A stretch of DNA of 64,000 bases from an uncultured bacterium (GCA_964525555.1 CAZGHN010000006.1:74805-138804), one strand, 5' to 3'; counted from the first letter of the stretch, positions 22,630-62,683 are shown. The notes: generated by a model from the sequence alone, not told the origin. Translations and numbers: made by a program.

Positions 22630-22658
22630 TTTTACCGCAGAAGACACAAAGAATAAAA

Positions 22659-22802: not shown

Positions 22803-22854
22803 CCTTGCCCCCTAAACTTTAATCAACTACGAGCAAGGAACAAAGAACTCTTTA

Positions 22855-25002
22855 TTACCTTATCCTTATTACTTTCTTTGAAATTTTAATGTTTCCTGAT
22901 TTTAGTATACCAAAGTACAATCCCGACCCGAGTTTATTGCCTGAATGGTCGCTTCCGTCCCACAAAATAATTGTTGGAGAAGAGCTATTATTTTCTAAGG
23001 AAAAGGATTTTACCAGCTGTCCGTTTACGTTATAAATGGAAAAAGCGGCATCTTTTATGCTATTGTTACCGGCTAGATAGAGAATAAATTCCGTTCTATT
23101 GCTGAAAGGATTAAGCGAGATATTGAAACTTAGAGGTATTGAGTTGTTTGTAGGGGTTTCTATACCTGCTTCTTCATCCTGAAGGACCCAGACTGTTCCA
23201 CCCTCGTGACACATTACGTAGATTTTGTTCGTTTGCGAATTTACTCCAACTTCCCAGGGGGCATCTCCGACTTCGATAGTCGTAATCACGGAATCTGTAT
23301 TTCCGTCAATTACACTGGTATTGTCATTATACTCATTTGCTGCAAAGATGTGGTTCGACTGTGGGTTTACACCTAGTCCTTTTGGCCAGTTTTCGACATC
23401 AATAGTGTCAATCACTAAGTTAGTAGCCCCATCGATTACATGGATACTATCGCATGCAACATATATTCTGTTTGTCTGTGGGTTTATGGCGATCCCTTCA
23501 GGCCAGCTGCCGACCGCAATAGTGTCAATCACGGAGTCAATAGCACCATCGATTGCAACAACACTGTGATTATCCGATTCTGTCACATATATCCGGTTTG
23601 TTTCCGGATTTATGCACATTCCTGATAGCCAGCTTCCAATTGCAGCTGTATCAATAACGGAGTTAGTTGTGCCGTCGAGTACGACAACCTTAGTATTATC
23701 TTCTATTACATATATCCGGTTTGTTTGCGGATTTACGGACATATCTGATATCCAGCTTCCAATTGCAATAGTATCGATCAAGGTGTTAGTAGTTCCGTTA
23801 ATAACGCTAACCTCGTTCTCAGTTCCTACATATATCCGGTTTGTTTCCGGATTCACGCAAACTTCTGACGTATAACCTCCGAGTTCAATGCTGGTAATCA
23901 TGGAGTTGGTAACTCCGTCAATTACGTTGACGCTGTAGCTTTCTCCAGTTGTTACATAAGTTCGGTTTGTTTGTGGATTTACGGCAATATCATTGGGTTG
24001 AACTCCAAGCACGATAGTAGTAATGAGGGTGTGGGTAGTTGCGTCAATCACACTGGCAGTGTGGTTCCAATAATTCGCCGTATATATACGGTTCGTTTTC
24101 AGATTTATAGCAAGCTCCCGCGGTTCGCCTCCAAGTGCGATGGTATCAATAAGTGAATCGAGTGTTACATCAAACACGGTAATAGCGTAGTTGTTTCTGT
24201 CTAAAGAGTAAAGATGGTTGGTTTGTGGGTCTAGACTTATACTGGATGGTCTATGTCCGACATCAATAGTGTCAATCACAGAGTCAGTCTCACCGTCAAT
24301 TACAAAAATGTTACTATAATCATAATTTGCAACATAGATTAGATTTTTTATAGTATCTACCTCAACTCCGAGAGGTCGGTTTCCAACATCAATAGTGTCA
24401 ATCACGGAATCTATAGTTCCGTCAATTACGTGAACATCTTCATCAGCCCAGTTCGTTACATATATGCGCCTGGTTTTTGGATTTGCATCGATTCCATTTG
24501 GCATATTTCCAACCGTAATAGTAGTGATCAAAGAGTTGGTATTGGCATCGATAACACTAACATTGTCGTCACCTTCATTTGCCGTATAGATGAGGTTATT
24601 CTTTGGGTCTATGCTAATTTTATCGGGAGAGTTTCCGATTGCAATAGAATCAATTATGGAGTCAGTTGTCCCATCAATCACATAAATATTGTCGGTGGCC
24701 GGATTTGTCGTGTAAATAAGGTTTGTTTCAGAATTCACTCCGATTTCCCTTGCTGCGTTTGCTAATTCAATAGAGGCAATGACAGAATTGGTTGTACCGT
24801 CGATCACGGAAACATTGTCTGTGAATAAATTTACCACATAGATACGGTTTGTCGCATCATTTACATCAATTGCTGTAGGGCGCAATCCGTTTCCCGATTC
24901 TGGGCGAAGGTATATTGTATCAATAACCGTAACCTGGCTGAACCCAATAATTGTGTAACAGAATATTATAACTGACAATGCGCCTTTTTTTGAAAAAAAC
25001 AT
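22855..25002 (-). CDS. YVTN-family beta-propeller repeat protein with T9SS-type C-terminal sorting domain
   Basis: Many ~43-aa repeats (N..IYV.N..sv.ViDg.T); signal peptide from ATG 25002 with RBS AAGGAG; C-terminal beta-sandwich tail. Confidence 0.7.
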   Translation of the reverse strand: MFFSKKGALSVIIFCYTIIGFSQVTVIDTIYLRPESGNGLRPTAIDVNDATNRIYVVNLFTDNVSVIDGTTNSVIASIELANAAREIGVNSETNLIYTTNPATDNIYVIDGTTDSIIDSIAIGNSPDKISIDPKNNLIYTANEGDDNVSVIDANTNSLITTITVGNMPNGIDANPKTRRIYVTNWADEDVHVIDGTIDSVIDTIDVGNRPLGVEVDTIKNLIYVANYDYSNIFVIDGETDSVIDTIDVGHRPSSISLDPQTNHLYSLDRNNYAITVFDVTLDSLIDTIALGGEPRELAINLKTNRIYTANYWNHTASVIDATTHTLITTIVLGVQPNDIAVNPQTNRTYVTTGESYSVNVIDGVTNSMITSIELGGYTSEVCVNPETNRIYVGTENEVSVINGTTNTLIDTIAIGSWISDMSVNPQTNRIYVIEDNTKVVVLDGTTNSVIDTAAIGSWLSGMCINPETNRIYVTESDNHSVVAIDGAIDSVIDTIAVGSWPEGIAINPQTNRIYVACDSIHVIDGATNLVIDTIDVENWPKGLGVNPQSNHIFAANEYNDNTSVIDGNTDSVITTIEVGDAPWEVGVNSQTNKIYVMCHEGGTVWVLQDEEAGIETPTNNSIPLSFNISLNPFSNRTEFILYLAGNNSIKDAAFSIYNVNGQLVKSFSLENNSSSPTIILWDGSDHSGNKLGSGLYFGILKSGNIKISKKVIRIR

Positions 25003-25127
25003 ATACTTCTCCTTATTTTTACAGACAAATATATTTTGTTTTCCTATTATGTCAACCATTTACTTATAAAAATATCAGTTTATTACTTATAAGGTATTTT
25101 TGTTGCAGAGAGAACACAGAGAATAGA

Positions 25128-25271: not shown

Positions 25272-25275
25272 TCTT

Positions 25276-28203: not shown

Positions 28204-28348
28204 ATAGGATTAGAAGCAGTGCAAGTCAGCAGTTCTGGGATTATGGATTAAGTGGTAAGTTAAAATTTAGTCCAAAGTCCAAGGTCCTAAGTCCAAAGTC
28301 TTGAGTCAAAACTAAATCCTAAATCCCAAATCAAAACCCCTAGTATTA
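28204..28348. repeat. ~145-bp interspersed element (family R1, subtype ii)
   Basis: Near-identical to 29061..29204; together they flank gene 28440..28970 as direct repeats. Confidence 0.75.
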
Positions 28349-28439
28349 CTGATTTACTGATTCACTAATTTACTGATATACTGAAATTCCATTTCAAATA
28401 TTCAACAATTCGACCATTCAACTGATCCGAAGGATCTTT

Positions 28440-28970
28440 CTATCTAGAAGTTTTAAGGATTTGATCTAATAACTCATTATTTGTTTTTAATTCTTCCCAA
28501 ATAAGATCCGGGGAAGAGAAGCAGTCGAAAGGGTTTTTCTCATTCCATGAGATATGGTTTAAAGATAAATCTCCTTTTGGTCTAATGTAGAATCGGAATT
28601 CCCAGGTAAGTGGAGTTCCCAAATGGTAACTTATATAATATAAACGTATATATTTATTGCTGCCCGGAAGATAACTTGTGTTAATAAGGTTATATTCATA
28701 AAAATCTCCATATCGCCCATTCGGAGGTTCAATGAAAATACTGTCTAATTTAGTTCTATAATCATTTTTAGTTTTTTCTTTTGTGTCTTCATCCAAGTAA
28801 TAACCAGTTTCTTCAACTATCATTCGAGCGATTTTTTCTGTTCGTTTATTTTTGAGGTCATCGAAAAATTTTACAACAAATTCATTTACTTGTTTATCTG
28901 CTATTTGTTTATCTATTTTAGCTGTTATATATAAAGGAACGAACATAAGTATAAGAATATAAATTTTCAC
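28440..28970 (-). CDS. secreted hypothetical protein (GTG start) preceded by an rhs-core-like promoter module
   Basis: Signal peptide; upstream 28994-29025 is homologous to the rhs HLDRLGSP coding segment. Confidence 0.5.
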   Translation of the reverse strand: MKIYILILMFVPLYITAKIDKQIADKQVNEFVVKFFDDLKNKRTEKIARMIVEETGYYLDEDTKEKTKNDYRTKLDSIFIEPPNGRYGDFYEYNLINTSYLPGSNKYIRLYYISYHLGTPLTWEFRFYIRPKGDLSLNHISWNEKNPFDCFSSPDLIWEELKTNNELLDQILKTSR

Positions 28971-29060
28971 ATAGTCCTCCTTTTTTATTAATGAGTGTAA
29001 TAAGGGGTACCGAGTCTGTCAAGATGGGTTTAATTCTCACACTGAGACACAGAGACCAAA

Positions 29061-29204
29061 ATAGGATTAGAAGCAGTGCAAGTCAGCAGTTCTGGGATTA
29101 TGGATTAAGTGGTAAGTTAAAATTTAGTCCAAAGTCCAAGGTCCTAAGTCCAAAGTCTTGAGTCAAAACTAAATCCTAAATCCCAAATCCAAACCCCTAG
29201 TATT
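29061..29204. repeat. ~145-bp interspersed element (family R1, subtype ii)
   Basis: See 28204..28348. Confidence 0.75.
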
Positions 29205-42405: not shown

Positions 42406-44967
42406 TTATTTCGCTATTTTTATAATTTTCGTTTCTTCTACCTTTTCTCCGTCTATTTTTAAAACCGCGAAATAAACACCGGAAACGAGGTTCTCTCCCC
42501 ATTTCGTTGAGTAAGTACCAGGGTCCATTTTTTCATCCAGTAGAGTTGCCATTTTTCTTCCGGTTTTATCGAAAATAGATAAATTTATATCTGCTTTTGT
42601 TGTTATACTTAACTGTATATCCGTTTTATCTATAAAGGGGCTCTTGATGGATAAGTATTTATATTTACTTGCAGTTATATCATCTCCGTCAATGATGCCT
42701 CCTTGCGGAGCGAATCCTCCTACTGCGGCTACTGCAAAAGGTATTGAACCGTTAGGACAATTATAACCCTTAACAGTGATAGTGTAAGTACCGAATAGAC
42801 CGGAAGATAGCCATACTACTTCAACGTTATTTACCCTGTCTGCCGAGCCTCCTGTTTGGGAATATCCTCCGGAAAATACATTGCCTCTGTATCTATTGCT
42901 ATTGGGCGCTGTAACAATTAAATCCAGGTCGTTAATAAGTGTGGGATTCGCCAGTGTGCTTGCAGTCGTATCAGCCCATGCGAGAACAAATTTTAAAGGT
43001 TCTGTTGTGGTTGTAACATCGATTGTCATTACAGTTGAATCGTTTGTCGATACTCCTGAAGAGTTATCGTTTACGTACAGAAGTCTTGATTCTACCGAGA
43101 AATGAAGTGCATTATCGAGCACGACTCGTCCCCAGCCTTCTGCTCTACTTGGGACAGGATTCCCGTCATTCATATCAACTGAAGAGGCTATTAGTACTGC
43201 TTTAACGAGTGCCGCTGAAGGTGAAAGAGGTGTTCCCGATAGCGTGTCACCGGTCGGATAAAATCCGTCGAGAAAATACTGTCTAATCATAGCGCAGGCT
43301 CCTGATATTTGAGGAGCTGCCTGTGATGTTCCGACCATTCCTCCTAATTGTCCGTGAGCAGAATCTATAGCCCAGGTATATTCAGGATTTGCCCCCCAGA
43401 TAAAATGTCTGTAAGCTGAAAAAGGATCGGTACCTCCTGGAGCCACTACTTCGGGTTTTATTCTTCCGTCGGTTGTCCATCCTCTACCTGAAAAAGAAGC
43501 CATGGAATCTGGTGAAATGTCGTATGTCGGATTCCAGCACGCTCCTACTGCTATGCAGTTTTTAGCTGTCGCCGGACAACCTACGGTTGTATCTCTCGGA
43601 CCAAAATTGCCTGCCGAGAAGACAACGACAAAGTCTTTGTTATTCCAGACAGCATTATCAATATCTAATGCTGCTCCGAAATATTCTCCGAAGAGACTGG
43701 TGTAATCCCAGGAGTTTTGATGTATTCTTGAGTTATAGGTAGTATAAGCCTTGTTGAGAGAAGTAGCCAAGTTGAATGAACCCAGTTTACAGGAGTCATT
43801 TTGAGTATAACCCATATCCTGTATATATAGTCTTACAGGGAAATAATCCGGAGTATTTCCTCTTGTTTGTCCGCCCCAATCATATATTGACATTAAATTA
43901 GTACCTCTGGGATGATTATTAGCTATTGAAGGATTGGCGGCTACGATAGAAGAAACATTTGTTCCGTGGGAACATCCGCCTGGGGCAACAGGAGTTCTTG
44001 TTTCTACTAAATCTCCTCCTTCGTCTGTATATGCCTGTACAGATATGTGATTACTTCCAGGAGGGTCATCCTGTGGGTCCTGGAAAAATCCGCTCCAGTA
44101 ATCCAGTCCTGTATCAAAAATAGTTACGATTTCTCCTTTACCTGTTACTCCTTTATCCGCGAGTGTAATTCCGCTTGTTACCGTATCCCAGAGTTGTCCC
44201 AGGTCTATATCCGATGCCATTGTAAAGCTATCCAGAGGAACCTGAACTGAATATCTCCAGGTGGAGGAAGAAAGCACTTTTTTCGCGTATCGGACTATGG
44301 ATTCTACTCCCTTTATCTTTGCTAGCGCGTTTAGCGAATCGGGTCGTATTCTAACGATCATTCTGTTGTTATTTTTCTCTATTTGCTGTATATCCGAACC
44401 CCAGTTTTTCAGTTGTTCTGAGATATCATATATTGAAACACCTTCAAAAACTTGAACGGAAAGTTGAAGTAAAGGGTCATTTTCTCTCCATAATTCGTCT
44501 TTTCCGCAATTGCATTCCCCTTTGCTTATAATTTCTAATTGTCCATCTTTAAACCTTCCGGTAGCCATAGGAAGTTTATTTTCTATTTCTTCTTCTCTTG
44601 TTTTGTAAGCACTCGGATGAATTTTGTATTCTGGATGAAATAATCCTATCCATCTTACGAATGGTAATTGTTCTGCATTTGCCTTTTCTTCGGGTGTCAT
44701 CTCCACTATATACGCGAAATGGGGGATATAGTCGTGGAATACGCCTCCTGCCTCGGCTATTTTTTCTTTCCACTCGGTATAAATCGGTCCTGTGAATTGT
44801 AAGATATAATAGTTTTCTCCGTCTACTTCAGTTGCCTGCAGTGCACTTCGCAGTTTCGGAGTGCTTTTAAGCGGATCGAATTTGTTGTTTACAAGTGAAA
44901 TTGACATATCATTTGAAGCGAAAATAGAGTAAGTTATAAAAAGAAACATTACGAATAGTTTTTTCAT
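42406..44967 (-). CDS. subtilisin-like S8 serine peptidase with T9SS-type C-terminal sorting domain
   Basis: Catalytic triad contexts DTGLDYW, HGTNVSS, GTSQAAPQISG; signal peptide; C-terminal beta-sandwich tail. Confidence 0.8.
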   Translation of the reverse strand: MKKLFVMFLFITYSIFASNDMSISLVNNKFDPLKSTPKLRSALQATEVDGENYYILQFTGPIYTEWKEKIAEAGGVFHDYIPHFAYIVEMTPEEKANAEQLPFVRWIGLFHPEYKIHPSAYKTREEEIENKLPMATGRFKDGQLEIISKGECNCGKDELWRENDPLLQLSVQVFEGVSIYDISEQLKNWGSDIQQIEKNNNRMIVRIRPDSLNALAKIKGVESIVRYAKKVLSSSTWRYSVQVPLDSFTMASDIDLGQLWDTVTSGITLADKGVTGKGEIVTIFDTGLDYWSGFFQDPQDDPPGSNHISVQAYTDEGGDLVETRTPVAPGGCSHGTNVSSIVAANPSIANNHPRGTNLMSIYDWGGQTRGNTPDYFPVRLYIQDMGYTQNDSCKLGSFNLATSLNKAYTTYNSRIHQNSWDYTSLFGEYFGAALDIDNAVWNNKDFVVVFSAGNFGPRDTTVGCPATAKNCIAVGACWNPTYDISPDSMASFSGRGWTTDGRIKPEVVAPGGTDPFSAYRHFIWGANPEYTWAIDSAHGQLGGMVGTSQAAPQISGACAMIRQYFLDGFYPTGDTLSGTPLSPSAALVKAVLIASSVDMNDGNPVPSRAEGWGRVVLDNALHFSVESRLLYVNDNSSGVSTNDSTVMTIDVTTTTEPLKFVLAWADTTASTLANPTLINDLDLIVTAPNSNRYRGNVFSGGYSQTGGSADRVNNVEVVWLSSGLFGTYTITVKGYNCPNGSIPFAVAAVGGFAPQGGIIDGDDITASKYKYLSIKSPFIDKTDIQLSITTKADINLSIFDKTGRKMATLLDEKMDPGTYSTKWGENLVSGVYFAVLKIDGEKVEETKIIKIAK

Positions 44968-45411: not shown

Positions 45412-46716
45412 TTAGTCAGATACCTTGGGTTCCCATAATTTTAGTTCGCTTATACATGCGTCATTATATTTGGAACCCTTGTATATATCTTTAATAATGA
45501 ATTTGACGGATTTAGTAACATGTGGTTCGATTTTAATCTTTTGTAAATCCATAGTATCTTTTAAATCTAGATTCATTGTTGAGCCATCCGAGAATGATAT
45601 CTCAAGGGTTTTTATTCTATTATTGGCATTAAATATGGCTTTTGATTTAGAGTAACCTGAAATGATATCAATTCTTTCGATATTATATTCCTCATCGAAA
45701 TCCAATTGTATCCATTCGCCTATACCGTCTCCTTCCGAACCTTCAACCCAGGCTGTATTATCATCATTATCAAATATATTGTCTATATCATATAAAAACT
45801 TGTTATTTTTATCGGTAAGAGTAGAAGAGCAGGTCACTTTCATATGATGTCTTTGAATTAACCCTTCGTTTTTCTTTAATTCCGCGATAATATTGTCTAA
45901 GTCTAACTCATAACAATCGACAAGTAGCCCGTTATCTCTGTTTTTCTCAAGGAAATCTATGACTTCCGGATTACAGATTTCTTCTATGTGAGAAAGGAAA
46001 TCATCAATTGGATAATAAACATCAGGTTTATTTATACTTTCTTCGAACGAATTAAGAATAAAATTAAGATTTTTCTCGTACTCATGATTGACCAGACAAT
46101 AAGCTTCCGCAATCGCTAATTCCTCTCTTATTCCCTTTGGCTTGAAATTCTTTAAAACTTCTACAATCCTTTTATCTCGTAATTCTGCCAATCTCCATAA
46201 AATTGGTAATGTAGATATATTTTTACTTTTAAACGGACCATCGAATGGACTCTTATTATCTTTATTGTGTAATTCATTATAGAGTTCTTGCATAAGATAG
46301 TCAAAAACTTTTGGTTTATTTATCTTCTCTAAAATAGATAAAGCAATATATAATGAATATTCACCTTTTTCGATATATCTCTTAACTTTACTATATAAAT
46401 TTGATTTTCTATCTGATGATATTTCTTTTAGAATCGACTCAAATAAATGTAATAATTTCTTTTCTTCAATATCGTCAGATAGCGAAAAGCTTTCAATTAT
46501 ACTTTTACTGGCTTCATCTGTACCAATCTCAATTAAATTTTCATAAGCTTGTTTTATTTTTTGATGATCTTCTTTGGTATTGATGCCTTCTGCAAGAATA
46601 TTTCTAATAATATTAGCGTGACGTTCAACATCTAAATCTTGTGATTTGTCTCCATTTGCTGATAATTGATAGCAAGAGCTAACAAAACATAGAATTATAA
46701 GGATACACGTTTTCAT
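45412..46716 (-). CDS. lipoprotein with helical N-terminal region and C-terminal galactose-binding/discoidin-like domain
   Basis: Lipobox LCFVSSC; C-terminal NTAWVEGSEGDGIGEWIQLDF...ISELKLW. Confidence 0.45.
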   Translation of the reverse strand: MKTCILIILCFVSSCYQLSANGDKSQDLDVERHANIIRNILAEGINTKEDHQKIKQAYENLIEIGTDEASKSIIESFSLSDDIEEKKLLHLFESILKEISSDRKSNLYSKVKRYIEKGEYSLYIALSILEKINKPKVFDYLMQELYNELHNKDNKSPFDGPFKSKNISTLPILWRLAELRDKRIVEVLKNFKPKGIREELAIAEAYCLVNHEYEKNLNFILNSFEESINKPDVYYPIDDFLSHIEEICNPEVIDFLEKNRDNGLLVDCYELDLDNIIAELKKNEGLIQRHHMKVTCSSTLTDKNNKFLYDIDNIFDNDDNTAWVEGSEGDGIGEWIQLDFDEEYNIERIDIISGYSKSKAIFNANNRIKTLEISFSDGSTMNLDLKDTMDLQKIKIEPHVTKSVKFIIKDIYKGSKYNDACISELKLWEPKVSD

Positions 46717-46784: not shown

Positions 46785-47738
46785 TTATTCCCAATAATAG
46801 TTGGGTCCGGCAAGGTCGGTTTTCGGATTAAACACCCGGGTGTTATCTGTTGGTGAAAGCAAAGATTGTAATGTATTATCTTCGGTAAACATTATATAAA
46901 TGTTATCTTCTTTAGGGTCGAAATCTTTGAAGTTCGCGTAAAAAGCTTTTTCATCTTCTCTGCTCATGAAAAGTACGCATCCTGCACTTTTTTCACCAAA
47001 GTGAAATAAACATAAAGTTTTATAATTTTTACCCGAGGCTGATTGAGTCACTGTTAATGAAATTTTAGTCCCTATTTCATTTGGCCACAAGTCTTTTCCA
47101 CCACGATCAGAAGCGTCAAGATTAGCTATATAAAGTGGAACTCCCTTGTTGGTTTTTGTAAATGTATTACTTTCCTTAAACACACCAGCATATTTAACAT
47201 TTGATGGCACAGATAAATATGGCTTGCCATTTTCTGCTGATGTATTTGCTTGACTATTTACCCTAAATTGAGAATTTAAGATAAATTTGTCATCCGCTGT
47301 CAGCCTTAGATTATCACAGTAACCTCCCGAATACCCAACATAATTCCTTACTACATTAATATTATAATCGGTTAAGCCACCAAGGTCAATTCGATTAATC
47401 GGATCATTTGTCGCGTACACATAAGGATTTAGACTTTGTGGGCCGGTTAAAAATAAATCTTGAGGCATAAGCGTATGCGGATCAGGGGTTATAAATCTCC
47501 CGGTATTACTGCTATAATACCTTGCTCCAAAGTAATTGAATCCAGACTTATCTTTTTCCTTTCCGGTGAAATCCCTATTGTCTTCAAGTGTTCCTGAAGT
47601 GCTTAAATTTATACCAAAACTCTCATATGACTTCTCCTTCACAATATCATCCTCATCTGTAATCATAATGGGGGAACCCAGTCTGTCAAGATGATAGAAA
47701 TACAATTTCCCATCCTTTTCTTTGGCAAGGAGGCGGTT
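46785..47738 (-). CDS. orphan rhs C-terminal cassette (start-less): core end (YFYHLDRLGSP...DPINRIDLGGL) plus unique toxin tip
   Basis: Frame opens directly after a stop; homology to rhs begins at NRLLAKEKDGKLYFYHLDRLGSP; no ATG or RBS. Confidence 0.6.
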   Translation of the reverse strand, partial: NRLLAKEKDGKLYFYHLDRLGSPIMITDEDDIVKEKSYESFGINLSTSGTLEDNRDFTGKEKDKSGFNYFGARYYSSNTGRFITPDPHTLMPQDLFLTGPQSLNPYVYATNDPINRIDLGGLTDYNINVVRNYVGYSGGYCDNLRLTADDKFILNSQFRVNSQANTSAENGKPYLSVPSNVKYAGVFKESNTFTKTNKGVPLYIANLDASDRGGKDLWPNEIGTKISLTVTQSASGKNYKTLCLFHFGEKSAGCVLFMSREDEKAFYANFKDFDPKEDNIYIMFTEDNTLQSLLSPTDNTRVFNPKTDLAGPNYYWE

Positions 47739-47755
47739 TTAAAAGAATTTAATAT

Positions 47756-48781
47756 TTATTTTTTAAGGTTAACCAGAAAAACTTTGTCCTTTGAATCTTT
47801 ATCACGCATTAAAAAAACTATCTTCAAACCATCAGGAGACCATTTAGCTGCATGGTTTTTCCTGTATTCTTCTTTGAACCCAAATATTTTCACTGATTTT
47901 CCGGTCTCTAAAGAATATATAAAGACTCCTTCGATAGTTGAATATACCAATTTTTTATCATCCGGAGAAAATGCGCCTGGTGCGAAACCTGGTAGGTATC
48001 GAAAATTATCATCGTTAAAACTAAATAACTTAATATATTTTAAAGTATTAACATTGTAAATCCAATATTCATAAACCGAATTCTCATTTTCAGAAGGCCG
48101 ATAACTAGCATAAAATAAGAACATATTTCCGTCCGAGGACCATACTGGATCCGGATAAGCGGATTTTAAGTCTGTAAGACCGGGAATAACTACTTTTTTG
48201 AATTTCTGCTCTTCCAGATTAAAAAACCACATTCTTTCATCGTAATTTGGTTCTCCCGTCAATGAATCCCTTGGATTACATAAGTCTATAACAATAAAAA
48301 GATCGGTCCGAGTTCCAAAATTTATAGCGCTATTATCGCTGGCATACCTTTGGAATCCCTCAGGGAGACTAACGCTTTTCTTCTCTCCTGACGGATATTT
48401 TATTCTAAGTGTATCTTTATATATCCTGACCACGTATTCCCTGCAGGGACTTACAGCCCAATCATATCCAAACTTCTTAATCGTGTCTACATCAAAGACT
48501 TCTTTTATATTCTCCTTGTTCTTACAATTATCATAGTATAATCTTATAAACTCCATTTCATTAATGCGTAAAGAATCTTTAGTTTCCAGGTCAAGAAGAT
48601 AATATTCGTTATAAGGTTTATATATGGTTTTACCAGAACCTCTATATAGGATTTTATTGGATTCAGTCCACTCATATAGGTATTCTATCTTGTCCGCTTC
48701 AAATATTGCCTGAGCTTTGTAATAGTCAGAGCTACACATACTTATGGTTAGACAGATTAAATTAAGATTAAATAGAAACAT
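47756..48781 (-). CDS. PD40/TolB-like beta-propeller lipoprotein (candidate immunity protein)
   Basis: Start at ATG 48781 with RBS GGAGGA; lipobox LTISMC; repeated SPDG/SSDG motifs. Confidence 0.55.
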   Translation of the reverse strand: MFLFNLNLICLTISMCSSDYYKAQAIFEADKIEYLYEWTESNKILYRGSGKTIYKPYNEYYLLDLETKDSLRINEMEFIRLYYDNCKNKENIKEVFDVDTIKKFGYDWAVSPCREYVVRIYKDTLRIKYPSGEKKSVSLPEGFQRYASDNSAINFGTRTDLFIVIDLCNPRDSLTGEPNYDERMWFFNLEEQKFKKVVIPGLTDLKSAYPDPVWSSDGNMFLFYASYRPSENENSVYEYWIYNVNTLKYIKLFSFNDDNFRYLPGFAPGAFSPDDKKLVYSTIEGVFIYSLETGKSVKIFGFKEEYRKNHAAKWSPDGLKIVFLMRDKDSKDKVFLVNLKK

Positions 48782-48862
48782 CTTGTTTCTCCTCCAATTT
48801 TTCATTTTTTTATATTAAAGATAATACATTTCTATACTTATTCATACTTACCTTAACTCATT

Positions 48863-50383
48863 TCACAATGGAGAAATATAAGGTTCAGGCTCGAAAGACT
48901 CAAAAATCGCTTGCGGTGGATCTTTCATTACTTCGCAATCCTCAGGCGTCTCTTCTGAATCATTCTTTTCGAGTTCATCAATTTGACCTGTTAAATCTTT
49001 CATATCATCATTTGATAACCTTATACACCCATTGGTAGCCCTCAGTTCTTCTGTAGCCTCGGAGAGTTTTCCTCCATGGATTCTAAATAAATCACGATTA
49101 GACTTCTTTGCTTCGCCTGATTTTGGGTCAAGAAGTATTTTTCCGTTAGGACCAAAAGAGCTTAATTTTTTCCCTGTCAATTTCGATGTACTTTGTCTTC
49201 CTGTTATGTCGTAAGTTCCGTAAGGGGTATCTCCATTTTCAGCCATCCTGTCTCTATGATTTCCTCTCCCTAAGGCATCCCAGCTTTTAACAACAATTCC
49301 CTGTCTATTGCGTAAGTATAACCTACCAGTCGTACTACGGTCGTCAGAAAAAGCAACATCTATAGACCATAAACCATTCGGGTCTACACGCGTAAGTGGC
49401 GCATTTAAACAATACACATAAGGATTCAGTTCCTGTGGGTTAGCTAACTTCAATCCTCCAGGCATCAATGTATGCGGATCGGGGGTCAGGAATCTTCCGA
49501 TACTACTACTATAATACCTCGCACCAAAGTAATTGAATCCAGACTTATCTTTTTCTTTACCGGTGAAATCCCGATTGTCTTCGTTAACACCCGTACTACT
49601 AAGGGCAGTACCGAAACTCTCATAAGATTTTTCCTTCACAATATCATCCTCATCTGTAATCATAATGGGGGAACCCAGTCTGTCAAGATGATAATAATAG
49701 ATGTGTCCGTCTTCATCTTTGGCAAGGAGACGGTTTCCCGCATAGAAATACTTCTTCGGAGGAGTTCGCTCTGAACCCGATTCGCATCGGGCGTTATCCA
49801 CCCATAATTTTCCGCCGCCTAACATTCTTGCTATATGAAACTTAAAATTAGCCGCGCCTGAAGGGATATCTCCAGGATTTATCGTTACTGAAATCTTCAT
49901 CCAGTTATTTGTGCCTGTTATTATAGCCGATGATTTCCCTCCGAAACTCTGGGACCAATCCGCACTCCAGAAATCGACCATTACTTTCACTCCTCCCGAT
50001 AGATTTTGAGTCTTTACCCAGACGGAAGCGGTAAAGGGTTTTTTTACCTCTGATAATGAATTATGCTGTATCATGAGTTCCGTTGTGCCCATAGATTGAA
50101 AGAATGGGGAGTATAGGCAATATTTACCTTCCTGGGATTGCTGGGAGGTCACAGACCAATTAAAATCACCTTCCCATTGTCCCCAGCCCGTCTTATCTCC
50201 TGTTTCAAATCCGGGATTTTCAAGAATATTAGGTGAATCATCATCTTCTAAGATGAGGTTGCCCGCGTTATCATGGAAATAATTAATTATTTCAGTATTC
50301 GAAGTAGGACAGTCGGTGATCTCCTGACGAATTCTCGGATATCCTTTATAGGAATATTTATAATTACACAAATATGTCCCGGA
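48863..50383 (-). CDS. orphan rhs C-terminal cassette (start-less): CBM4/9-like domain, rhs core end, L,D-transpeptidase-fold toxin tip
   Basis: Homology to full-length rhs from YKGYPRIRQEIT onward; YYYHLDRLGSP...DPNGL; tip contains HGG-x17-TNGCIRL (YkuD catalytic signature); only a TTG at 50371, no RBS. Confidence 0.6.
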   Translation of the reverse strand, partial: SGTYLCNYKYSYKGYPRIRQEITDCPTSNTEIINYFHDNAGNLILEDDDSPNILENPGFETGDKTGWGQWEGDFNWSVTSQQSQEGKYCLYSPFFQSMGTTELMIQHNSLSEVKKPFTASVWVKTQNLSGGVKVMVDFWSADWSQSFGGKSSAIITGTNNWMKISVTINPGDIPSGAANFKFHIARMLGGGKLWVDNARCESGSERTPPKKYFYAGNRLLAKDEDGHIYYYHLDRLGSPIMITDEDDIVKEKSYESFGTALSSTGVNEDNRDFTGKEKDKSGFNYFGARYYSSSIGRFLTPDPHTLMPGGLKLANPQELNPYVYCLNAPLTRVDPNGLWSIDVAFSDDRSTTGRLYLRNRQGIVVKSWDALGRGNHRDRMAENGDTPYGTYDITGRQSTSKLTGKKLSSFGPNGKILLDPKSGEAKKSNRDLFRIHGGKLSEATEELRATNGCIRLSNDDMKDLTGQIDELEKNDSEETPEDCEVMKDPPQAIFESFEPEPYISPL

Positions 50384-50405
50384 CTAAAATGTGTAGTTAA
50401 GTGAT

Positions 50406-50726
50406 CTACTCGATTTCTATCTCAATCCCGCCTATTTTTCGGGAAAGGAAATTGTAGAAAAGTCCTCCTAATAATCCAAATAAAAATCCACCAGTACCAT
50501 ACATAATTGGAAATAAAATGAAGCTTACTCTTCTATATATCCAGGATAGTATTGTCCCAGACAGCATAGGAGAATATCTTCCATATTCTGTTCCTATATA
50601 TATGCCTATTATTACGCCTGGAATAAGATAAAGAAAAGCGCAAATCTTCGCTACTGAAAGTACTCCTACTTTTTTTATCTCTACTACCTTTTTACCCTGT
50701 AATTCTTCTTCTTGTAAAGCTATCAT
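50406..50726 (-). CDS. small two-TM membrane protein (candidate immunity protein)
   Basis: 106 aa with two hydrophobic helices; lies between toxin cassettes. Confidence 0.4.
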   Translation of the reverse strand: MIALQEEELQGKKVVEIKKVGVLSVAKICAFLYLIPGVIIGIYIGTEYGRYSPMLSGTILSWIYRRVSFILFPIMYGTGGFLFGLLGGLFYNFLSRKIGGIEIEIE

Positions 50727-50742
50727 TATTTATTATCCCCTG

Positions 50743-51834
50743 TTATTTTTGAGGATACCAGGAGATTTCTCCGCAAGAATAAGCGTGAATCCCTATAATT
50801 TTTCTCTTATTTGTCCCGTTGTTATTCATAACCCAGATTTCAGTATATTTATCATCCTCTATCTCTTCTACAATATATGCGATAAATTTATCATCAGGTG
50901 ATACCATGGGAGAATACTCATATATATCTGGCGAATTTGTCAGGTTCTTTTGGTTTTTACCATCACTATCCATCACAAAAATTTCACTTGGGAAATCTTT
51001 GGTTTCCCTTTTTATACTCCAGTCTATACATCTGCTAAAATAGATTTTCTTGCCGTCATTAGACCAACAAGGATCAAAATCAGGAAGATTATTATTTGTC
51101 AGTCTTTTATATTTTCCGTTCTCTATATTTATTACAAAGATCTCTGAGATAGAAGATTCAAAGGCAGTTCTACTTAGAGAGTCCGGAAGGGTGTAAGGGA
51201 GCCTTGTTTGTTCCGCTTCTAATTGTGTACTAAAAGCAATTTCTTTTTCATCCGGAGAAAGAGCAAAATCACCATAAAAGTTAGCTAATTCAGGACTTAT
51301 TTTCATGGCATTAAAAGAGATTTTGGACTGGACAGTGTCATGAACTATAAACTCATATCCGTCAAGATTAAATATAATCTTTCCTGAAGAAGTAGGTGCT
51401 ATAGAACAAATAATTCCATCTAGGTCTTTATATTTCTCTCTCTCGCTTTTTGGAAGGTTTTCCCAGCATCTAATTATTCTTCTTGTTCCCGTTGTATTCA
51501 TAATATAAATATCTGGATCATCTTGCCAACCCACAATACCATCGTCATATAAACCGGTCTCAAACCTTGTCCCAAGAAATAAAATTCCCGAGCCATCTGG
51601 TAACCAGACAGGATCTTCCAGAGGGTATCTTGTATTAGTTAACTGATATAGAGTATGAGGCGAATCTACTTTAACTGCAAATATCTGGGGATCTTTAATC
51701 GGATTACTGTTTGTATCCGCGGTAAAGAGTATAGTATTTGTGAAATCCACATTAGCCGGCAATTTCTCTACTTCAGCGTTACATCCGGTTAAGATTACAA
51801 TGAAAAGAAAGAAGACATTTATTTTTTTAATCAT
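50743..51834 (-). CDS. PD40/TolB-like beta-propeller lipoprotein (candidate immunity protein)
   Basis: Start at ATG 51834 with RBS GAGGAG, 11 nt after the stop of cassette 51845..53086; lipobox ILTGC; repeated LPDG/SNDG/SPDD motifs. Confidence 0.55.
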   Translation of the reverse strand: MIKKINVFFLFIVILTGCNAEVEKLPANVDFTNTILFTADTNSNPIKDPQIFAVKVDSPHTLYQLTNTRYPLEDPVWLPDGSGILFLGTRFETGLYDDGIVGWQDDPDIYIMNTTGTRRIIRCWENLPKSEREKYKDLDGIICSIAPTSSGKIIFNLDGYEFIVHDTVQSKISFNAMKISPELANFYGDFALSPDEKEIAFSTQLEAEQTRLPYTLPDSLSRTAFESSISEIFVINIENGKYKRLTNNNLPDFDPCWSNDGKKIYFSRCIDWSIKRETKDFPSEIFVMDSDGKNQKNLTNSPDIYEYSPMVSPDDKFIAYIVEEIEDDKYTEIWVMNNNGTNKRKIIGIHAYSCGEISWYPQK

Positions 51835-51844
51835 TATGCTCCTC

Positions 51845-53086
51845 TTACCAGTTTTGAATATCCTGAGGTATGACTTGAATATTTCCGTTATCATAAGACC
51901 CAATTGGACTATAACCACTAACTGCGTTATAATGTTGAAGGAAATCATTATCATATTTGCCTCCACCTCTTTTAATAAGACTCTTCGGATCTTTTCCTCG
52001 ATGTACTTCCTTTACAAATTTTTTCATTCTTGCAAGTTCTATCTCTGCTACCTCTGCTCCGTTCTTCTGGTCTTTATAAACTTTACTAAGATCTAGCCGG
52101 TCGTAACCCTCATAACCTGGCACTATTGCTTCCTCATGTTTGTGAGCAAACATTCCCATGCAGATTTTATCTATATCCCCTTCGCGGATTGTATTCATAG
52201 TACTAAAAAGGGTAACAATTCCCCAGAAAGCAGTAGTTGGAACGCCGGTAAATGCCGCCCCAGCCCAAAACCAATCTTCACCTGTTACAATTTCTGCGGA
52301 GGGGTAAGGTATCTCTTCAGGAGCTGTGGTTAAAGCTCCTGGGAAACGTCTCCTAAGGGTTAAAAATACACTACCCATTGGTACTATCGAACCAGCTGTT
52401 TCAGCCGTCCCTCGACCCAAAGTTACCCTATATACCATATTATCTGTAGTAGTGCGGAATAGGCCTTTCTTATCCACATAATACAACGGATCATTTGTGC
52501 AATAAACATACGGATTAAATGTTTGCGGGTCCGAAAGTTCCAAATTCCCCGGCATAAGCGTATGCGGATCAGGGGATATAAATCTTCCGGTATTACTACT
52601 ATAATACCTCGCACCAAAGTAATTGAATCCCGACTTATCTTTCTCTTTACCAGTAAACTCCCTATTATCCTCATGAGTCCCACTTGATGAGACCACCGCT
52701 CCAAACCCTTCATACGTTTTATCTTTCACAATATCATCCTCATCTGTAATCATAATGGGGGAACCGAGTCTGTCAAGATGATAATAATAGAGATGACCGT
52801 CTTCTTCTTTGGCAAGGAGACGGTTTCCCGCATAGAAATACTTCTTCGGAGGAGTTCGCTCTGAACCCGATTCGCATCGGGCGTTATCCACCCATAATTT
52901 TCCTGAACCGGATAGTTTTATAAGCATTACCTTAAGGGCTTCTACTTCCCATTCGGGCATATTTCCTTCATCTACCGTTAACAATATCTTTTGCCAGTTG
53001 TTTGTTCCTGTTATTGGATTAGATGTTATAAATTTGTTATGACCGATAGAGAGTAAGAATTGTCCAATGTCGAGATGCGACCCCAA
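51845..53086 (-). CDS. orphan rhs C-terminal cassette (start-less): partial CBM-like domain, rhs core end, unique toxin tip
   Basis: YYYHLDRLGSP...NDPLYYVDKKGL; frame opens after stop at 53087-89 (TTG only); 5' end abuts tandem repeat 53079..53151. Confidence 0.6.
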   Translation of the reverse strand: MGSHLDIGQFLLSIGHNKFITSNPITGTNNWQKILLTVDEGNMPEWEVEALKVMLIKLSGSGKLWVDNARCESGSERTPPKKYFYAGNRLLAKEEDGHLYYYHLDRLGSPIMITDEDDIVKDKTYEGFGAVVSSSGTHEDNREFTGKEKDKSGFNYFGARYYSSNTGRFISPDPHTLMPGNLELSDPQTFNPYVYCTNDPLYYVDKKGLFRTTTDNMVYRVTLGRGTAETAGSIVPMGSVFLTLRRRFPGALTTAPEEIPYPSAEIVTGEDWFWAGAAFTGVPTTAFWGIVTLFSTMNTIREGDIDKICMGMFAHKHEEAIVPGYEGYDRLDLSKVYKDQKNGAEVAEIELARMKKFVKEVHRGKDPKSLIKRGGGKYDNDFLQHYNAVSGYSPIGSYDNGNIQVIPQDIQNW

Positions 53087-55248: not shown

Positions 55249-58200
55249 TTACCACTCAATTTCTTCAAACCTATAAATCTTCCCAGAATCCCAGTAATAA
55301 GTCGCACCTAACATAGGAACATAAACACCACCTTCCGTAGTCCAACCACTTCCAAAGAAATAATCTCCTTGAACGCCAATTATAGAGCCTCCGGCTGTCT
55401 CAATAGACTTTCTGGTCAGGCATTTTGAAAGTTCGTCTTCAGTTGGCGCTCGACGCCATCGGTTCATCTTACACATAGTACCCGCTGACAAACTACCAGA
55501 TAAAGGTATTAAAGATTTTCCCAGCTGTGGGCCATGTCCAAAGTACACATTCCCATACCTATCCAACTTTAAATTTATACTATATCCAATAATAGATCCT
55601 AAATTAATAGTAAGATTAAGATAATCAGGCCATTGTCCTCTCCAAAACTCATTAACAGCTTCTTGCATCGTAGGTCCTTGATAAATACCAAGATAAAAAC
55701 CCAAATAATTGAAAAAATGATACGGATCCATACTTGATGCGGTAACGATAATAGGATCCATTAAAAATATATCATCACCTATTTGGGTCGGTTCCAATCC
55801 CCATGGGTCAAAGAAATTTACTGGATCGTTATGGCAATACACATAAGGATTAAGTGTCTGCGGACGCTCTAAATTCACAAGTAGTGGATACAAGTTAATC
55901 GGATCAGGTGTAAAAAACCTACCGATATCCGCACTGTAATACCTCGCTCCAAAATAATGGAAACCGGTCTTATCTTTTTCTTTCCCAGTGAATTCACGGT
56001 TGTCATTATATGTACCATTGGACCAGCGTAAATTCCCAAACGCCTCATATAATCTTTCTTTTACAACATTACCATCTTCATCTGTTATCATAAGCGGTGA
56101 ACCGAGACGGTCAAGATGATAAAAATGAAGGTCTCCGTCATTTTCAGTCGCAAGAAGACGGTTCCCCGCATAGATATATCTTTTGGGAGCTGTAGTCTCA
56201 CTATCGTCATCCTCGAGAATGAGATTACCCGCGATATCATAGAAGTAATTAAAAATTTCCTTAGTTCCTGCCGGATACTGTGTAATTTTCTGTCTTATTC
56301 GCTGACTCCCTTTGTAATAATAATTGTACACTCTATCGGTTTCCATTGAATTAAGCGAAACAAGATTTCCATCCACATCATAGGTAAGACTGGCATCTTC
56401 CGAGACGCTGGTAAATCCATTTATCCTGCCATTTTCATCGTATGAATAGTTAAATTCACCGTCATTCTTTAACCTGTTGGTTCCGGAATAATAAGTATAA
56501 TTAGTACTATTGACGCTTTTCCTATTTCCGACCGTATCATAGGTGAAAATGAGTGTGTAACCCGGAATATAGGGATAACGACCGTAATAAATATTTTTCT
56601 TATCCTGCGTAAGTCTTCCGAGTTTATCGTATTGGTAAGATTTTACAATATCTCCAGGCCCGTCATCATGCCTGACTTCTTGATACACCTCTCCTCGTTT
56701 ATTGTAGCAAAATTGTGCTATATAGGGGTTGGCGGAAGGAATATTCTTTATTTCCATCCAGTACATCCAATTCCTTGGTCTATATGCAAATGTATCGGTA
56801 ATTCCACCGGGGAAATTTATGCCTCTTAAGAGGCCTGCTGCTGTGGATGAAAGATTGATCGTTTTGTAATCGTTAATTTCTACCGACGAGATATTGCCAA
56901 GTTTATCATATTCATATTCGACTTTGTACTCGTCCGGGTATTCCAGTTTAGTTAATCTTCCCCACAGATCGTAGGAATATTTGAATGTCTGTTCATCTAT
57001 ATCACCAATTAATGGTATTACAAGCTTTTCCCCAAGGTTTCCGAATTTATCGTAAAAATATACTTCCCTTACATTTGGATTTTGGAAACCCGTAAGTCTT
57101 CCTTTTGGAAAATTTAATCCTGAAGGTGCAGTATAAGGTGTACCTTTTATAGTATAGTTATCGTAGAAATATTCCTCCAGTGTATCAGGGAAAAACATGT
57201 AGCTTAATGAATCGTTTGTTATCACAAGGACTGATTTAATTGAATCTAGCCAGTTTTGTGATCCATGTGCAGGATAACCAGGAATAGCGGAATCAGTATG
57301 TTGGATCGCCATCCCACAAATAGTATTCCCAATATAATCCTCGCCTGGGTAAAGAAGAAAAGAATGATCTTGTTGCCAGGTTTTATTAATTGAAGAAAAG
57401 CCTTCTTGAATGGTGAACTCGCTACCAAAAGTATCGGCCGGATTTTCGAAATACACGAATAATGAACATATTCCGAAATAATTAGGAGGGTCAAATACCC
57501 AGGTTTTTGAATTAAATCTTATCCTTATCTCTTCACCTTCATCTTGCATTACATTTGCATCCTCAATGTCCCAGTATAGCCGACCAAGTTCGCGGTGGGG
57601 ATACATCCAGCTTTTACCAGGCACATACAATAAAGTGTCTTCAACCATATAGAATAGTGTATCCGGAGCAGGATCATGTATAGCCGGATTGATTTTGGTT
57701 TTTAATCTACCAAGATTATCATAAGTATAATAGATTGAATCACCGATATTTGTTCTACGAAGCTTTAAATTCCCATCAGGATAATATTCGAATGAATCTA
57801 CGCCTCTGTCAGGACCTTCTCTACGGATTAGTTCACCTAACCAGTTATAGTTAAAATCAGTGAATTTTCCTTCTGCGCCTTCAATTTCTATTAAGTTTCC
57901 GTTTGCGTCGTAATCGTAATAAGTATGATAATCGAGAGCATCTATGACCTCTACCAAGCTGCCTGTTGCATCGTTAATTAATGTGGTATAATATCCTTTC
58001 TCATCTCTTACATCTGTTATATTCCCATTATATTCATAGGTAACAAATTCGGCTCCAGGATCTTCAGAGCTTTTGGGATATTCTATCTCGGTTACTCTTC
58101 CAAGTGCATCGAAAGTCTTTTTTACTGTGTCCGCGTTTGCTGCACTGTTAAACCGTAGTGCTGTTTCCTTATTCATACGCCCATTATTATCATAAAAATA

Positions 58201-60980: not shown

Positions 60981-60997
60981 TTAGCCACACCCACCAC

Positions 60998-61253: not shown

Positions 61254-61826
61254 TTATCCTCCATGCATTTTTCTTGATTCTACAATTATTGTATCCGCGT
61301 TAATTATTATGTTTAGTCCTGTTTTTATTTTTTTAAGTTCGGCTCCCATATATTTTACATTTGGAGGATATTTGATCTGGTCGCCAAAATCAAAAATCCT
61401 CATTTTATATCCTTCTTTAGCATCACCAAATAAAACAAAATGAATTACAACTTCATCACCCGAATTAAAACAGGCAATATAATATAATTGGATTGCCCGC
61501 TGTCCTAAAACAGGCAGATATGAATCAAAAACAATCTCTTTTATACCTCCAGATTCCTCGAAGTAAACTTTTTCCATCGCATCTCTGAATTCTTCAAAAG
61601 TAAATTCTTTTAAAAGATCCGGATGAAATTGTAGAAAAACTTCTTTATAATTCTTATTGAAAAGTCCAAAAAGAACCTTGTTGGTAATCGTTACTGCCTT
61701 AAAAGTGTCGTGTTCCAGCTGGCGAACACAATGAGATAGGACAATGATGGACGAAATTAAGATTAAAATTATAAAAGAACACTTTTTCTTCATATATTTA
61801 GTATATTTAGGGTCAAATCGCGGCAT
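61254..61826 (-). CDS. secreted/lipoprotein-like hypothetical protein preceded by an rhs-core-like promoter module
   Basis: RBS AGGAGG 61835-61840; upstream 61853-61881 encodes HLDRLGHPY-stop, homologous to the rhs core segment. Confidence 0.5.
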   Translation of the reverse strand: MPRFDPKYTKYMKKKCSFIILILISSIIVLSHCVRQLEHDTFKAVTITNKVLFGLFNKNYKEVFLQFHPDLLKEFTFEEFRDAMEKVYFEESGGIKEIVFDSYLPVLGQRAIQLYYIACFNSGDEVVIHFVLFGDAKEGYKMRIFDFGDQIKYPPNVKYMGAELKKIKTGLNIIINADTIIVESRKMHGG

Positions 61827-62200
61827 TGCATTATCCTCCTTTTTTATTAATGATTTTAATAAGGGTGTCCAAGCCTGTCAAGATGGGTTGAATAAGGTTA
61901 GGTTGTTAGAAGGTTAGGTGGTTTCAAAAAAAATCCGATCCAACAGTGTTTTATAACTAGTTCCTGGTACCCGGTACCTGATATCTAAAATTGACCATAG
62001 AGATCGCAGAGATTTTTAAATGTTGGTCTGTTGATCTGTTAGTCTGTTTTTTCCCCACCTACACACTAACTTTATTTATCTTTTGACCCATGACTCAAGA
62101 CGCGGGACTCACCGACTCGGTTGAAATTGTCAAGCGTTGAGATTTACCCCCAATTATTTACGTATGTACCCTCGTCTATATGAGAAGATCGTCTCTCGTG

Positions 62201-62683
62201 TTATTTATACACTAAAATAAAAATCAAAATCTCCCAGAAAGGTACAGTTAAAATCAAAACAACGCTGGAGATCCTTAACCTTTTATTTTTTCTTTCTATT
62301 TCCTCCGTTATTTTTTCCCTTTTGCTTAACACTTCCGAAGAAAAATGATAACAAGAAATTCCACTTAAAAAAAGTGCTATGGTTAAAGGAAATATATACA
62401 TCATGAAACTTCCCGGAATATTACCGAACTCGGGGACAATATCTAATATCTCCTCAACACATATCAAAAGTATGATGTAAATAACCCCTATCGCCATAGG
62501 TATACTAACCAATTTATTGGTTATCCTTAAAAACTTTTTTACTTTTTCATTCCCTATAAAAGGAAAGAAAGGACGATATAGTTTCACAACAGCACCTACG
62601 TATTTATCTGCAAAGAAAAAGAAAGTTAAAAATAAAAGATAGAAACAGTAAATCCCTAAAGCGGCTAAGACTTTAATTGCCAT
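62201..62683 (-). CDS. four-TM membrane protein immediately after an rhs toxin tip (candidate immunity protein)
   Basis: 160 aa with several hydrophobic helices; begins 4 nt after the stop of 62687.. Confidence 0.5.
   Translation of the reverse strand: MAIKVLAALGIYCFYLLFLTFFFFADKYVGAVVKLYRPFFPFIGNEKVKKFLRITNKLVSIPMAIGVIYIILLICVEEILDIVPEFGNIPGSFMMYIFPLTIALFLSGISCYHFSSEVLSKREKITEEIERKNKRLRISSVVLILTVPFWEILIFILVYK

Follow-up and report, generated by a model that had tools for sequence, protein, structure and literature searches.

The closest described systems to the one presented here are the internal promoters of enterobacterial rhs genes. In Salmonella Typhimurium, transcription start sites (TSS) of the rhs promoters P2A and P2B were mapped by 5′RACE, and YFP fusions to them were active (Starsta et al. 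2020, PMC7043789). P2 is located in the conserved rhs core, with its TSS 89 nt before the PxxxxDPxGL motif, and is present upstream of at least 50 toxins; similar internal promoters are described for rhsF and rhsG of EHEC (PMC7618764). All internal rhs promoters documented to date are from enterobacteria and from one core segment. Such promoters explain how a toxin tip and its immunity gene can be expressed while the large delivery gene is silent.

We analyzed a 64,000-nt stretch of DNA from an uncultured bacterium (the window; G+C content 36.5%). The original prediction for this DNA was that a segment of the rhs core doubles as a promoter, that copies of it precede two genes for secreted proteins (genes A and B), and that either the promoter has been co-opted there or the two genes mark former rhs recombination junctions. 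Both readings proved partly true, and they are not mutually exclusive. Our reading is that an rhs-derived module, i.e., a promoter plus a Shine-Dalgarno (SD) sequence, drives gene A and, by copying, gene B, and that the same stretch probably acts as a promoter in rhs; we give this statement as a whole a probability of roughly 60%, and a higher one to the descent from rhs and to the use as a promoter before A and B. We infer the promoter activity, in the modules as in rhs, and the route of origin from sequence features.

Results

The rhs array and its core segment

[quoted passage not shown] The three longer orphans (48863..50371, 51845..53086 and 62687..63979) encode a CBM_4_9-like domain that immediately precedes the core segment; since the full-length rhs has no such domain at the corresponding position, these orphans are from a different parental rhs. 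Orphan 48863..50371 has a YkuD/Tlde1-like L,D-transpeptidase domain as its tip and is followed by a gene for a beta-propeller lipoprotein. An Rfam search of the whole window matched no family.

The Pfam RHS signature starts with HLDRLGSPIMIT, which is encoded by the 35 bases CAT-C-TTGACA-N16-TATGAT-TAC and is the most conserved motif of Rhs toxin genes; HLDRLGSP(I/L)MIT forms the first 19 positions of PF03527 ('RHS protein'). We found the promoter motifs in rhs and before genes A and B at the places claimed for them, all on the minus strand, except for a one-base slip at the second rhs site (49659-49686, previously given as 49658-49685). The string TTGAC(A/C)-N16-TATGAT, predicted for every rhs copy, is present in 4 of the 5 copies in the window, where it is read from HLDRLGSP(I/L)MIT codons, and is absent from the fifth, an HLNRLG copy with TTAACC at the −35. 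These rhs sites score 10-11 of 12 against the sigma70 consensus, and the distance from the −10 to the PxxxxDPxGL cleavage motif is 259-262 nt in 5 of 5 copies, with a consensus −35 in 4 of 5.

We compared synonymous sites across four diverged lineages, i.e., an orphan, the full-length gene, the copy at 63.5 kb and the rhs of a related contig (L045). Only 21 of 96 third codon positions (22%) are identical across the four; the three on which the hexamers depend (Leu CTT, Asp/Asn xAC and Ile/Leu xTT) are all identical (p about 0.01, on three sites and four lineages only), and the Ser, Pro and Arg codons within the spacer vary in all cases. GAC is the minority Asp codon, at 24% usage. Selection inside rhs, if any, is not strict, since the −35, whose sixth base varies among rhs copies, is weaker in the full-length gene (TTGACC) and degenerate in the fifth copy. 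By analogy with Salmonella, it is plausible, with the odds about even, that the segment acts as an internal promoter in rhs, at another motif. Transcripts from it may drive expression of the tip and immunity genes, a view that draws on the published precedent together with the weak synonymous-site signal.

Table 1. Coordinates of features in the window and, where named, in related contigs.
Feature	Position (nt)	Strand	Details
Full-length rhs gene	55249..60846	−	
Three orphan rhs fragments and partner genes	46785..53086	−	
Individual orphans	46785..47705, 48863..50371, 51845..53086	−	
Further rhs orphan	62687..63979	−	Then membrane-protein gene 62201..62683, then gene B
rhs site, TTGACA-N16-TATGAT	47662..47689	−	On HLDRLGSPIMI; orphan 46785..47705
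rhs site, TTGACA-N16-TATGAT	49659..49686	−	Orphan 48863..50371 (YkuD/Tlde1-like tip)
rhs site, TTGACA-N16-TATGAT	52749..52776	−	Orphan 51845..53086; copy nearest to module A
rhs site, TTGACC-N16-TATGAT	56087..56114	−	Full-length rhs; 262 nt upstream of PVNFFDPWGL cleavage motif
Fifth rhs copy (HLNRLG)	63546..63573	−	Degenerate −35 TTAACC, N16, −10 TATGAT
Predicted TSS inside rhs	about 47655, 49652, 52742, 56080	−	
Second sigma70-like site (11/12), TTGACC-N17-TATAAT	47361-47389	−	In orphan 46785..47705; overlies IDLGGL codons, the PxxxxDPxGL equivalent at the core/tip boundary
Gene A	28440..28970	−	176-aa protein, N-terminal signal peptide, predicted NTF2-like fold
Module A (rhs-like core promoter to start codon)	28968..29026	−	CAT 29026-29024; −35 TTGACA 29022-29017; 17-nt spacer; −10 TACACT 28999-28994
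Module A after the −10	28980-28975 (SD), 28970-28968 (start)	−	CAT-TAATAAAAAA, then SD GGAGGA, then GTG
Module A, predicted TSS	about 28987	−	
144-bp direct repeat (family R2), downstream copy	28204..28347		Brackets gene A cassette
144-bp direct repeat (family R2), upstream copy	29061..29204		Brackets gene A cassette
Gene B	61254..61826	−	190-aa lipoprotein-like protein
Module B	61824..61885	−	−35 TTGACA 61881-61876; 17-nt spacer; −10 TAAAAT 61858-61853
Module B, downstream part	61839-61834 (SD), 61826 (start)	−	SD GGAGGA, ATG; predicted TSS about 61846
315-bp spacer, membrane-protein gene (62201..62683) to module B	61886..62200	−	Micro-tandem arrays; REP-like 25-mer 62127-62151
PCC-domain gene (PF03479), fronting sequence	L049 5083-5125; L055 2429-2533		Near gene A in relatives
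Family R2	22642-22806, 25114-25275, 28204-28347, 29045-29204		
Family R3	42256-42411 (inverted), 45014-45219, 60966-61171		
REP-like 25-mer	62127-62151 (window)		
REP-like 25-mer, L003	135-159; 1168-1268	+; −	Three copies at 1168-1268
REP-like 25-mer, L045	135-235		One exact, two variant copies by eye
Motif similar to REP-like 25-mer, L059	about 1782-1806		
Micro-tandem arrays	437-474, 2023-2054, 6373-6444, 7372-7425, 12195-12233, 28269-28422, 29126-29190, 42142-42294, 45181-45281, 53078-53151, 61012-61189, 61896-62048		
Tandem array, 14-16-nt unit TGTGTAATTGGGGTCG	53078-53151		About five copies; adjoins orphan 51845..53086 upstream
Small hairpin GATTCTTCGAATC	28424-28436, 6365-6377, 45227-45239, 61195-61207		Shortly after stop codons

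Genes A and B and their upstream modules

Gene A lies 16 kb from the nearest gene of the array (45412..46716), with a hydrolase gene on one side and an ABC-transporter operon on the other. Its protein has 11 homologues among 5.8 billion clustered proteins, and the wider family comprises 20 clusters at 50% identity among 1.8 billion representatives. An AlphaFold model built with 23 sequences reached a pLDDT of 86 (initial model, 45), and the structure matches of this model were generic NTF2-like ones only; neither the A nor the B protein matched a Pfam or NCBIfam family, immunity families included. The predicted NTF2-like fold of A is a mere generic resemblance, and neither A nor B is assigned to an immunity family. 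An apparent A-B homology (BLASTP E=0.002; shallow profile E=0.0013) was rejected with a deeper A-family profile (hhalign E=0.14).

Both modules are directly upstream of the ribosome-binding sites, as had been predicted, with GGAGGA 13 nt past the −10 in each; module A scores 10 of 12 and module B 11 of 12 against the sigma70 consensus, and module A is matched by an nhmmer module profile at E=6.7e-12. The frame through module B reads HLDRLGHPY-stop, as originally stated, and that through module A reads HLDRLGTPYYTH-stop and not HLDRLGTPY-stop. The rhs similarity of either module extends over about 23-35 bp. Module A is identical to rhs positions 52758-52780 at 22 of 23 bases (blastn-short against the window, E=2.5e-4), with an uninterrupted run of 18 in which every orthologue differs. 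Whereas rhs and the orthologues have TATGAT as the −10, the two modules of the window have the diverged elements TACACT and TAAAAT.

Gene B, described in the original prediction as a non-rhs gene like gene A, belongs to an rhs tip cassette (62687..63979/62201..62683), in which it is conserved as the third gene. The single homologue found (66% identity) is the third gene of the cassette in L045/L046, with the order rhs orphan, 170-aa membrane protein, B homologue; the rhs orphans of the window and L045 cassettes are 39% identical over 275 aa, into the tip, and the membrane proteins match at E=2e-5. The ATG of the B homologue in L045 overlaps the preceding gene, i.e., the two are translationally coupled, with the 315-bp spacer and the module both absent. 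With two genomes to compare, either the window-type or the L045-type arrangement could be ancestral. Module B is not the core fragment of its own rhs cassette. It has a stretch of 56-60 bp in common with module A at about 87% identity (86.7% over 60 bp; 28975-29034 against 61834-61893), running from 9 nt upstream of CATC through the SD and including TCATTAATAAAAAAGGAGGA. Since the two modules have non-rhs bases and derived indels in common, seen in no orthologue, module B is a secondary copy of an A-type module and marks no independent rhs junction.

The two 144-bp direct repeats that flank the gene A cassette are 99.3% identical, which points to a recent insertion or duplication; the R2 relatives at 22642-22806 and 25114-25275 are more diverged (blastn, 82-98% over 54-71-bp overlaps). 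No site-specific recombinase was found among the genes scanned near A or B, and the modules have no inverted-repeat structure. These repeats are among the evidence for an alternative that we consider unlikely, in which the conserved 35 bp are a homology patch for cassette exchange with rhs, besides or instead of a promoter. This explanation would account for the 18 consecutive bases that module A has in common with the resident rhs copy and with no orthologue, for the movement of module copies between unrelated genes, and for the orphan in L045, which starts at the module boundary with generic upstream DNA, as if from a crossover between module and rhs. Against it, the lower homology limit for RecA-dependent exchange is near 35 bp; the reciprocal product, i.e., an rhs 5′ part fused to gene A, was not found, and upkeep of homology alone would not favor the hexamers over the spacer. 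A dual-purpose version, which appears equally unlikely, would make the HLDRLGS stretch a promoter, through which expression of whatever cassette lies downstream is maintained, and a 35-bp homology patch at once, resembling an integron-like attachment-plus-promoter site with no dedicated recombinase, where gene A, gene B, a PCC-domain gene described below and the orphan tips would be plugged into and out of rhs arrays.

Orthologous loci in other metagenomes

In the window, alignment of the flanks of genes A and B revealed nothing further that is rhs-like, i.e., the extended homology to rhs that a junction might have left does not go beyond 23-35 bp. By the criterion set with the original prediction, this would weigh against a former junction, and we therefore examined relatives, using six distinct upstream regions of gene A homologues (L002, L003, L049/50, L055, L056 and L057/58; proteins 60-72% identical). 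All six contain the module, CTTGACAG-N15-TATG(A/T)T-TAC-TAATAAAAGGAGG, within the full upstream pattern (C/T)(A/G)T-CTTGACAG-N15-TATG(A/T)T-TAC-TAATA(A/G)AA(A)GGAGGTAT..(A/G)TG, and the N-terminal extensions of proteins P0005 and P0010 encode the same module. Beyond the hexamers, the module bases comprise TC.TTC.CC in the spacer and TATGATTAC. Gap-free alignment with rhs gives identity at 27-29 of 35 positions and at 15-17 of the 23 non-hexamer positions, and identity in the next 22 nt downstream falls to background (6-9 of 22). The retained rhs piece starts one base ahead of the −35 and ends three bases past the −10, and its edges are those of a core promoter.

Across the six loci, all but one of the 12 hexamer columns show no variation, as compared with 5 of the 16 columns in the spacer (Fisher p=0.002), and the SD and its spacing are also conserved. 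The former rhs frame is destroyed, reading HLDR followed by TISPT, VDSPV or FISST, and coding constraint therefore does not hold the hexamers. Near-invariant hexamers with a drifting spacer are the pattern expected of a working promoter, and in this respect the predicted co-option gains support from the sequences. A homologue in L051-53 has only the −10 half, behind a Fic gene, so that the −35 may be dispensable where an upstream gene can supply transcription.

This pattern bears on the possibility of a neutral scar, in which rhs bases were left beside gene A by deletion of an orphan toxin, the promoter look is accidental, and A and B are transcribed from elsewhere. The rhs arrays do rearrange in relatives, with truncated rhs genes in L003, L045 and L059 and a decayed remnant in L055 whose −35 is lost (CTCGAC), as a scar might be. 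We regard this explanation as quite unlikely, given that six diverged orthologues have kept the hexamers while the spacer decayed, that the retained piece matches promoter edges at a constant distance from the SD, that the unit was copied to gene B and to the PCC gene, and that the spacers before A and before B contain no better promoter.

The genomic contexts in relatives place gene A close to rhs. In L003 the order is an rhs core (EAFGNLVWAEGTHEDNREFTGKEKEPTGFHYLGARRYYANIGK) truncated at a REP-like 25-mer, a Y1 transposase gene, three REP copies inverted relative to the first, the module and gene A; coming after a truncated rhs, gene A occupies the expected place of an orphan cassette. In L049 the order is an intact rhs end, a small gene (putative immunity), a Y1 transposase, a Fic toxin-antitoxin pair, the module with gene A, an MNT/HepT toxin-antitoxin pair, and the module with a PCC-domain gene, and in other relatives gene A is among toxin-antitoxin pairs, near the same PCC gene. 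Gene A is thus in or directly after an rhs array in L003 and L049, and not in the window or L002; gene B is so placed in the window. In the true rhs orphan of L045, the rhs homology starts at the His codon, and the open reading frame upstream of it is translated spacer DNA, so that the HLDRLGS stretch can be the functional 5′ end of a free-standing cassette.

The intact module before the PCC gene of L049 has the very sequence that precedes gene A in L055, and its −10 is placed 10 nt before an ATG that has no SD. This arrangement, in a third type of gene, is sensible only if the module supplies a transcription start, which again favors co-option. In L055 the PCC gene is instead preceded by a separate, longer and decayed rhs remnant (YFYHLDLIGFSFMITDEND), whose DNA, TATTTCTATCATCTCGACCTTATTGGATTTTCTTTTATGATCACGGATGAGAATGAT, is a decayed YFYHLD.IG...MITDEND matched by the rhs profile (nhmmer E=6.5e-9) and has 11-12 of 16 further rhs bases beyond TAC. 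This remnant demonstrates that rhs 5′ fragments do remain before non-rhs genes in this lineage; convergence on a promoter cannot account for it, which favors descent from rhs. The proposal of former rhs junctions thus fits the A family, through the stop of similarity at the promoter edge, the L055 remnant and the L003 and L049 contexts, and does not fit gene B, whose module was copied.

Two further candidate signs of junctions were rejected, namely a junction common to L057 and L045, suggested by similar upstream DNA, and TATTAT before CATC in L057 as extra rhs (YYH) homology, since the micro-tandem motif with C(A/G)TCTTGAC behind it also precedes an unrelated L049/L057 promoter.

Similarity of the modules to rhs and to other promoters

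The window contains 22 sites of the form TTGACM-N15-18-TANNNT, against 6.7 ± 2.7 in shuffled sequence. Fifteen sites score at least 11 of 12 against the sigma70 consensus, 3 of them rhs sites and 1 module B, and such sites are about 5-fold enriched per base in intergenic DNA, indicating that the organism uses sigma70-type promoters. We accordingly weighed an explanation in which a C(A/G)TCTTGACA promoter family is common in this lineage and resembles rhs by convergence or chance. Consistent with it, promoters of unrelated genes at window 6489 and at L049 6353/L057 3369 have CGTCTTGAC or CATCTTGAC at their head, with the extended −35 context C(A/G)TCTTGAC, and the micro-tandem motif that precedes the L057 module and the L045 orphan exists in multiple copies. 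For this reason we count neither the C(A/G)TCTTGAC bases nor this upstream similarity toward rhs descent. The match to rhs extends through the spacer (10-11 of 16, counted by hand) and the TAC after the −10 (3 of 3), and the −10 has the non-consensus G of TATGAT in common with rhs. An rhs-core DNA profile matches A-family modules at five other metagenomic loci (E about 1e-4 in a 145-kb set), and neither this profile nor the module profile matches the generic promoters of that set. With the further rhs bases of the L055 remnant (MITDEND) added, the explanation by a generic promoter appears very unlikely. Chance similarity between module and rhs is excluded by the match of module A to rhs at 22 of 23 bases and by the count of only 15 sites that reach 11 of 12, rhs sites and module B among them. 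We base the case for rhs descent on the spacer bases, the match over TATGAT-TAC, the results of the profile searches and the remnant in L055.

The main rhs promoter (60944-60971), which has a TCATTTTCCC block in common with some modules, was not counted as related, since the module profile gives no match to it. A module scan of species-representative genomes and JGI metagenome contigs returned the same lineage only (L037, which equals L002, and L055); about 40 further matches were rejected as unrelated promoter-like strings. The module is thus not widespread. A degenerate codon pattern for HLDRLGSPIMITDE had no match in viral contigs, and a search with the rhs core protein returned three proteins.

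Repeats and other intergenic elements

The intergenic spacers of the window consist of concatenated micro-tandem arrays with a period of 7-9 nt and 3-5 degenerate copies each, for example GGATTTGGGATTTAGGATTTAG, CAGACTAACAGATCAACAGACCAACA and CTCTGTGTTCTCTGTGG, often with a CTCTGTG-type or TCTGCGT-type pair directly upstream of a promoter. The same style is present in L002, L003, L045, L049 and L057, and we know of no described element like these spacer arrays. Two intergenic repeat families, R2 and R3, have members of 140-210 bp. Copies of R2 bracket gene A and also an NHL beta-propeller gene (22855..25059); direct copies of R3 (84-92% identical) bracket the entire 15.8-kb rhs array, and R3 copies end where the promoters of two genes begin, the full-length rhs gene and a subtilase gene (42406..44967). 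In the small hairpin behind gene A, GATCCTTCGGATC, compensatory changes preserve the stem. Inverted copies of the REP-like 25-mer GGGGTCAAATCTCAACACTTGACAA lie on either side of a Y1 transposase gene (IS200-like, RAYT-type), and the 25-mer truncates the different rhs genes of L003 and L045 at nearly the same codon (after ..IGK and ..IGRF, respectively).

Insertion of the gene A cassette 3′ of TTAC, the IS608 target, by an IS200/IS605-like or REP-associated Y1 transposase is highly improbable: the rhs-like part does end exactly at ...ATGATTAC, and Y1_Tnp genes and REP-like 25-mers do adjoin gene A in L003, L049 and L058 and rhs fragments in L045 and L059, but no subterminal hairpins flank the cassette at the junction, the subset of window open reading frames scanned with Pfam includes no Y1 transposase gene, and the REP-like elements are upstream of the module, away from the junction.

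Discussion

What our analysis establishes by direct observation is how the sequences are related, how they are conserved and in which genomic contexts the modules lie. The mechanism we propose for them is that the coding strand of the 35-base HLDRLGS stretch would at the same time be a near-consensus sigma70 promoter, and that a copy of exactly this stretch was cut out of rhs, joined to an SD sequence and became the promoter of a small family of putative secreted NTF2-like proteins, represented here by gene A. The likeliest route would be through a free-standing cassette of the rhs orphan type, with the toxin-coding part replaced. The promoter-plus-SD unit of 56-60 bp would later have been copied, in a relative, to the PCC-domain gene and, in the window genome, to gene B, which, as the last of three genes in its rhs tip cassette, may already have been split from its operon by the 315-bp spacer. 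The same hexamers in intact and orphan rhs would start transcripts over the toxin tip and downstream immunity genes. Six transcription starts, four in rhs and one in each module, are predicted from the site geometry, about 6-8 nt past the −10 elements.

The case suggests that a distant, uncultured lineage acquired an internal promoter at another core motif, the second for this trait, that selection on synonymous sites of a toxin gene can keep a promoter, and that part of a coding sequence, once excised, can spread to other genes as a portable unit of promoter and SD. Reuse of an excised promoter by non-toxin genes is not described in the searched passages of PMC7043789 and PMC7618764.

Compared with the promoters in those papers, the rhs segment described here is similarly a sigma70-type promoter, in our case predicted, within the conserved core upstream of PxxxxDPxGL, and similarly occurs in main and orphan copies, at a position from which transcripts would cover the toxin tip and immunity gene independently of the full-length gene. 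Unlike P2 of Salmonella, which overlies YFDxETGLHYN, the segment overlies HLDRLGS, at the start of PF03527 and about 250 nt before the cleavage motif; the P2 motif is about 40 codons downstream of this site, and blastn-short of the published 108-bp P2 region against it gave chance 10-11-mers only.

The modules also resemble Rhs orphan toxin/immunity cassettes, as described in PMC3150448 and PMC3967940, in having an rhs core fragment at the 5′ end of the cassette and in lying within or behind an rhs array, as is the case for gene B of the window and for gene A of L003 and L049; the true orphan of L045 starts at the same codon. They differ from those cassettes in that only 35 bp of core are present, with no toxin tip following, i.e., no tip-coding sequence precedes A or B, and in that a predicted secreted NTF2-like gene stands behind the fragment, which for gene A in the window is 16 kb from the array.

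A final comparison is with rAID-1 (Ross et al., bioRxiv 10.1101/471110), where, as here, toxin-linked genes are kept without a toxin and repeated intergenic sequences lie between them. Unlike rAID-1, the present system has no immunity-gene array, A and B are not assigned as immunity proteins, and there is no XerD-type recombinase among the genes scanned near A or B, the relatives carrying Y1 transposases only. Also unlike rAID-1, the repeated unit appears to derive from the toxin gene's own coding sequence.
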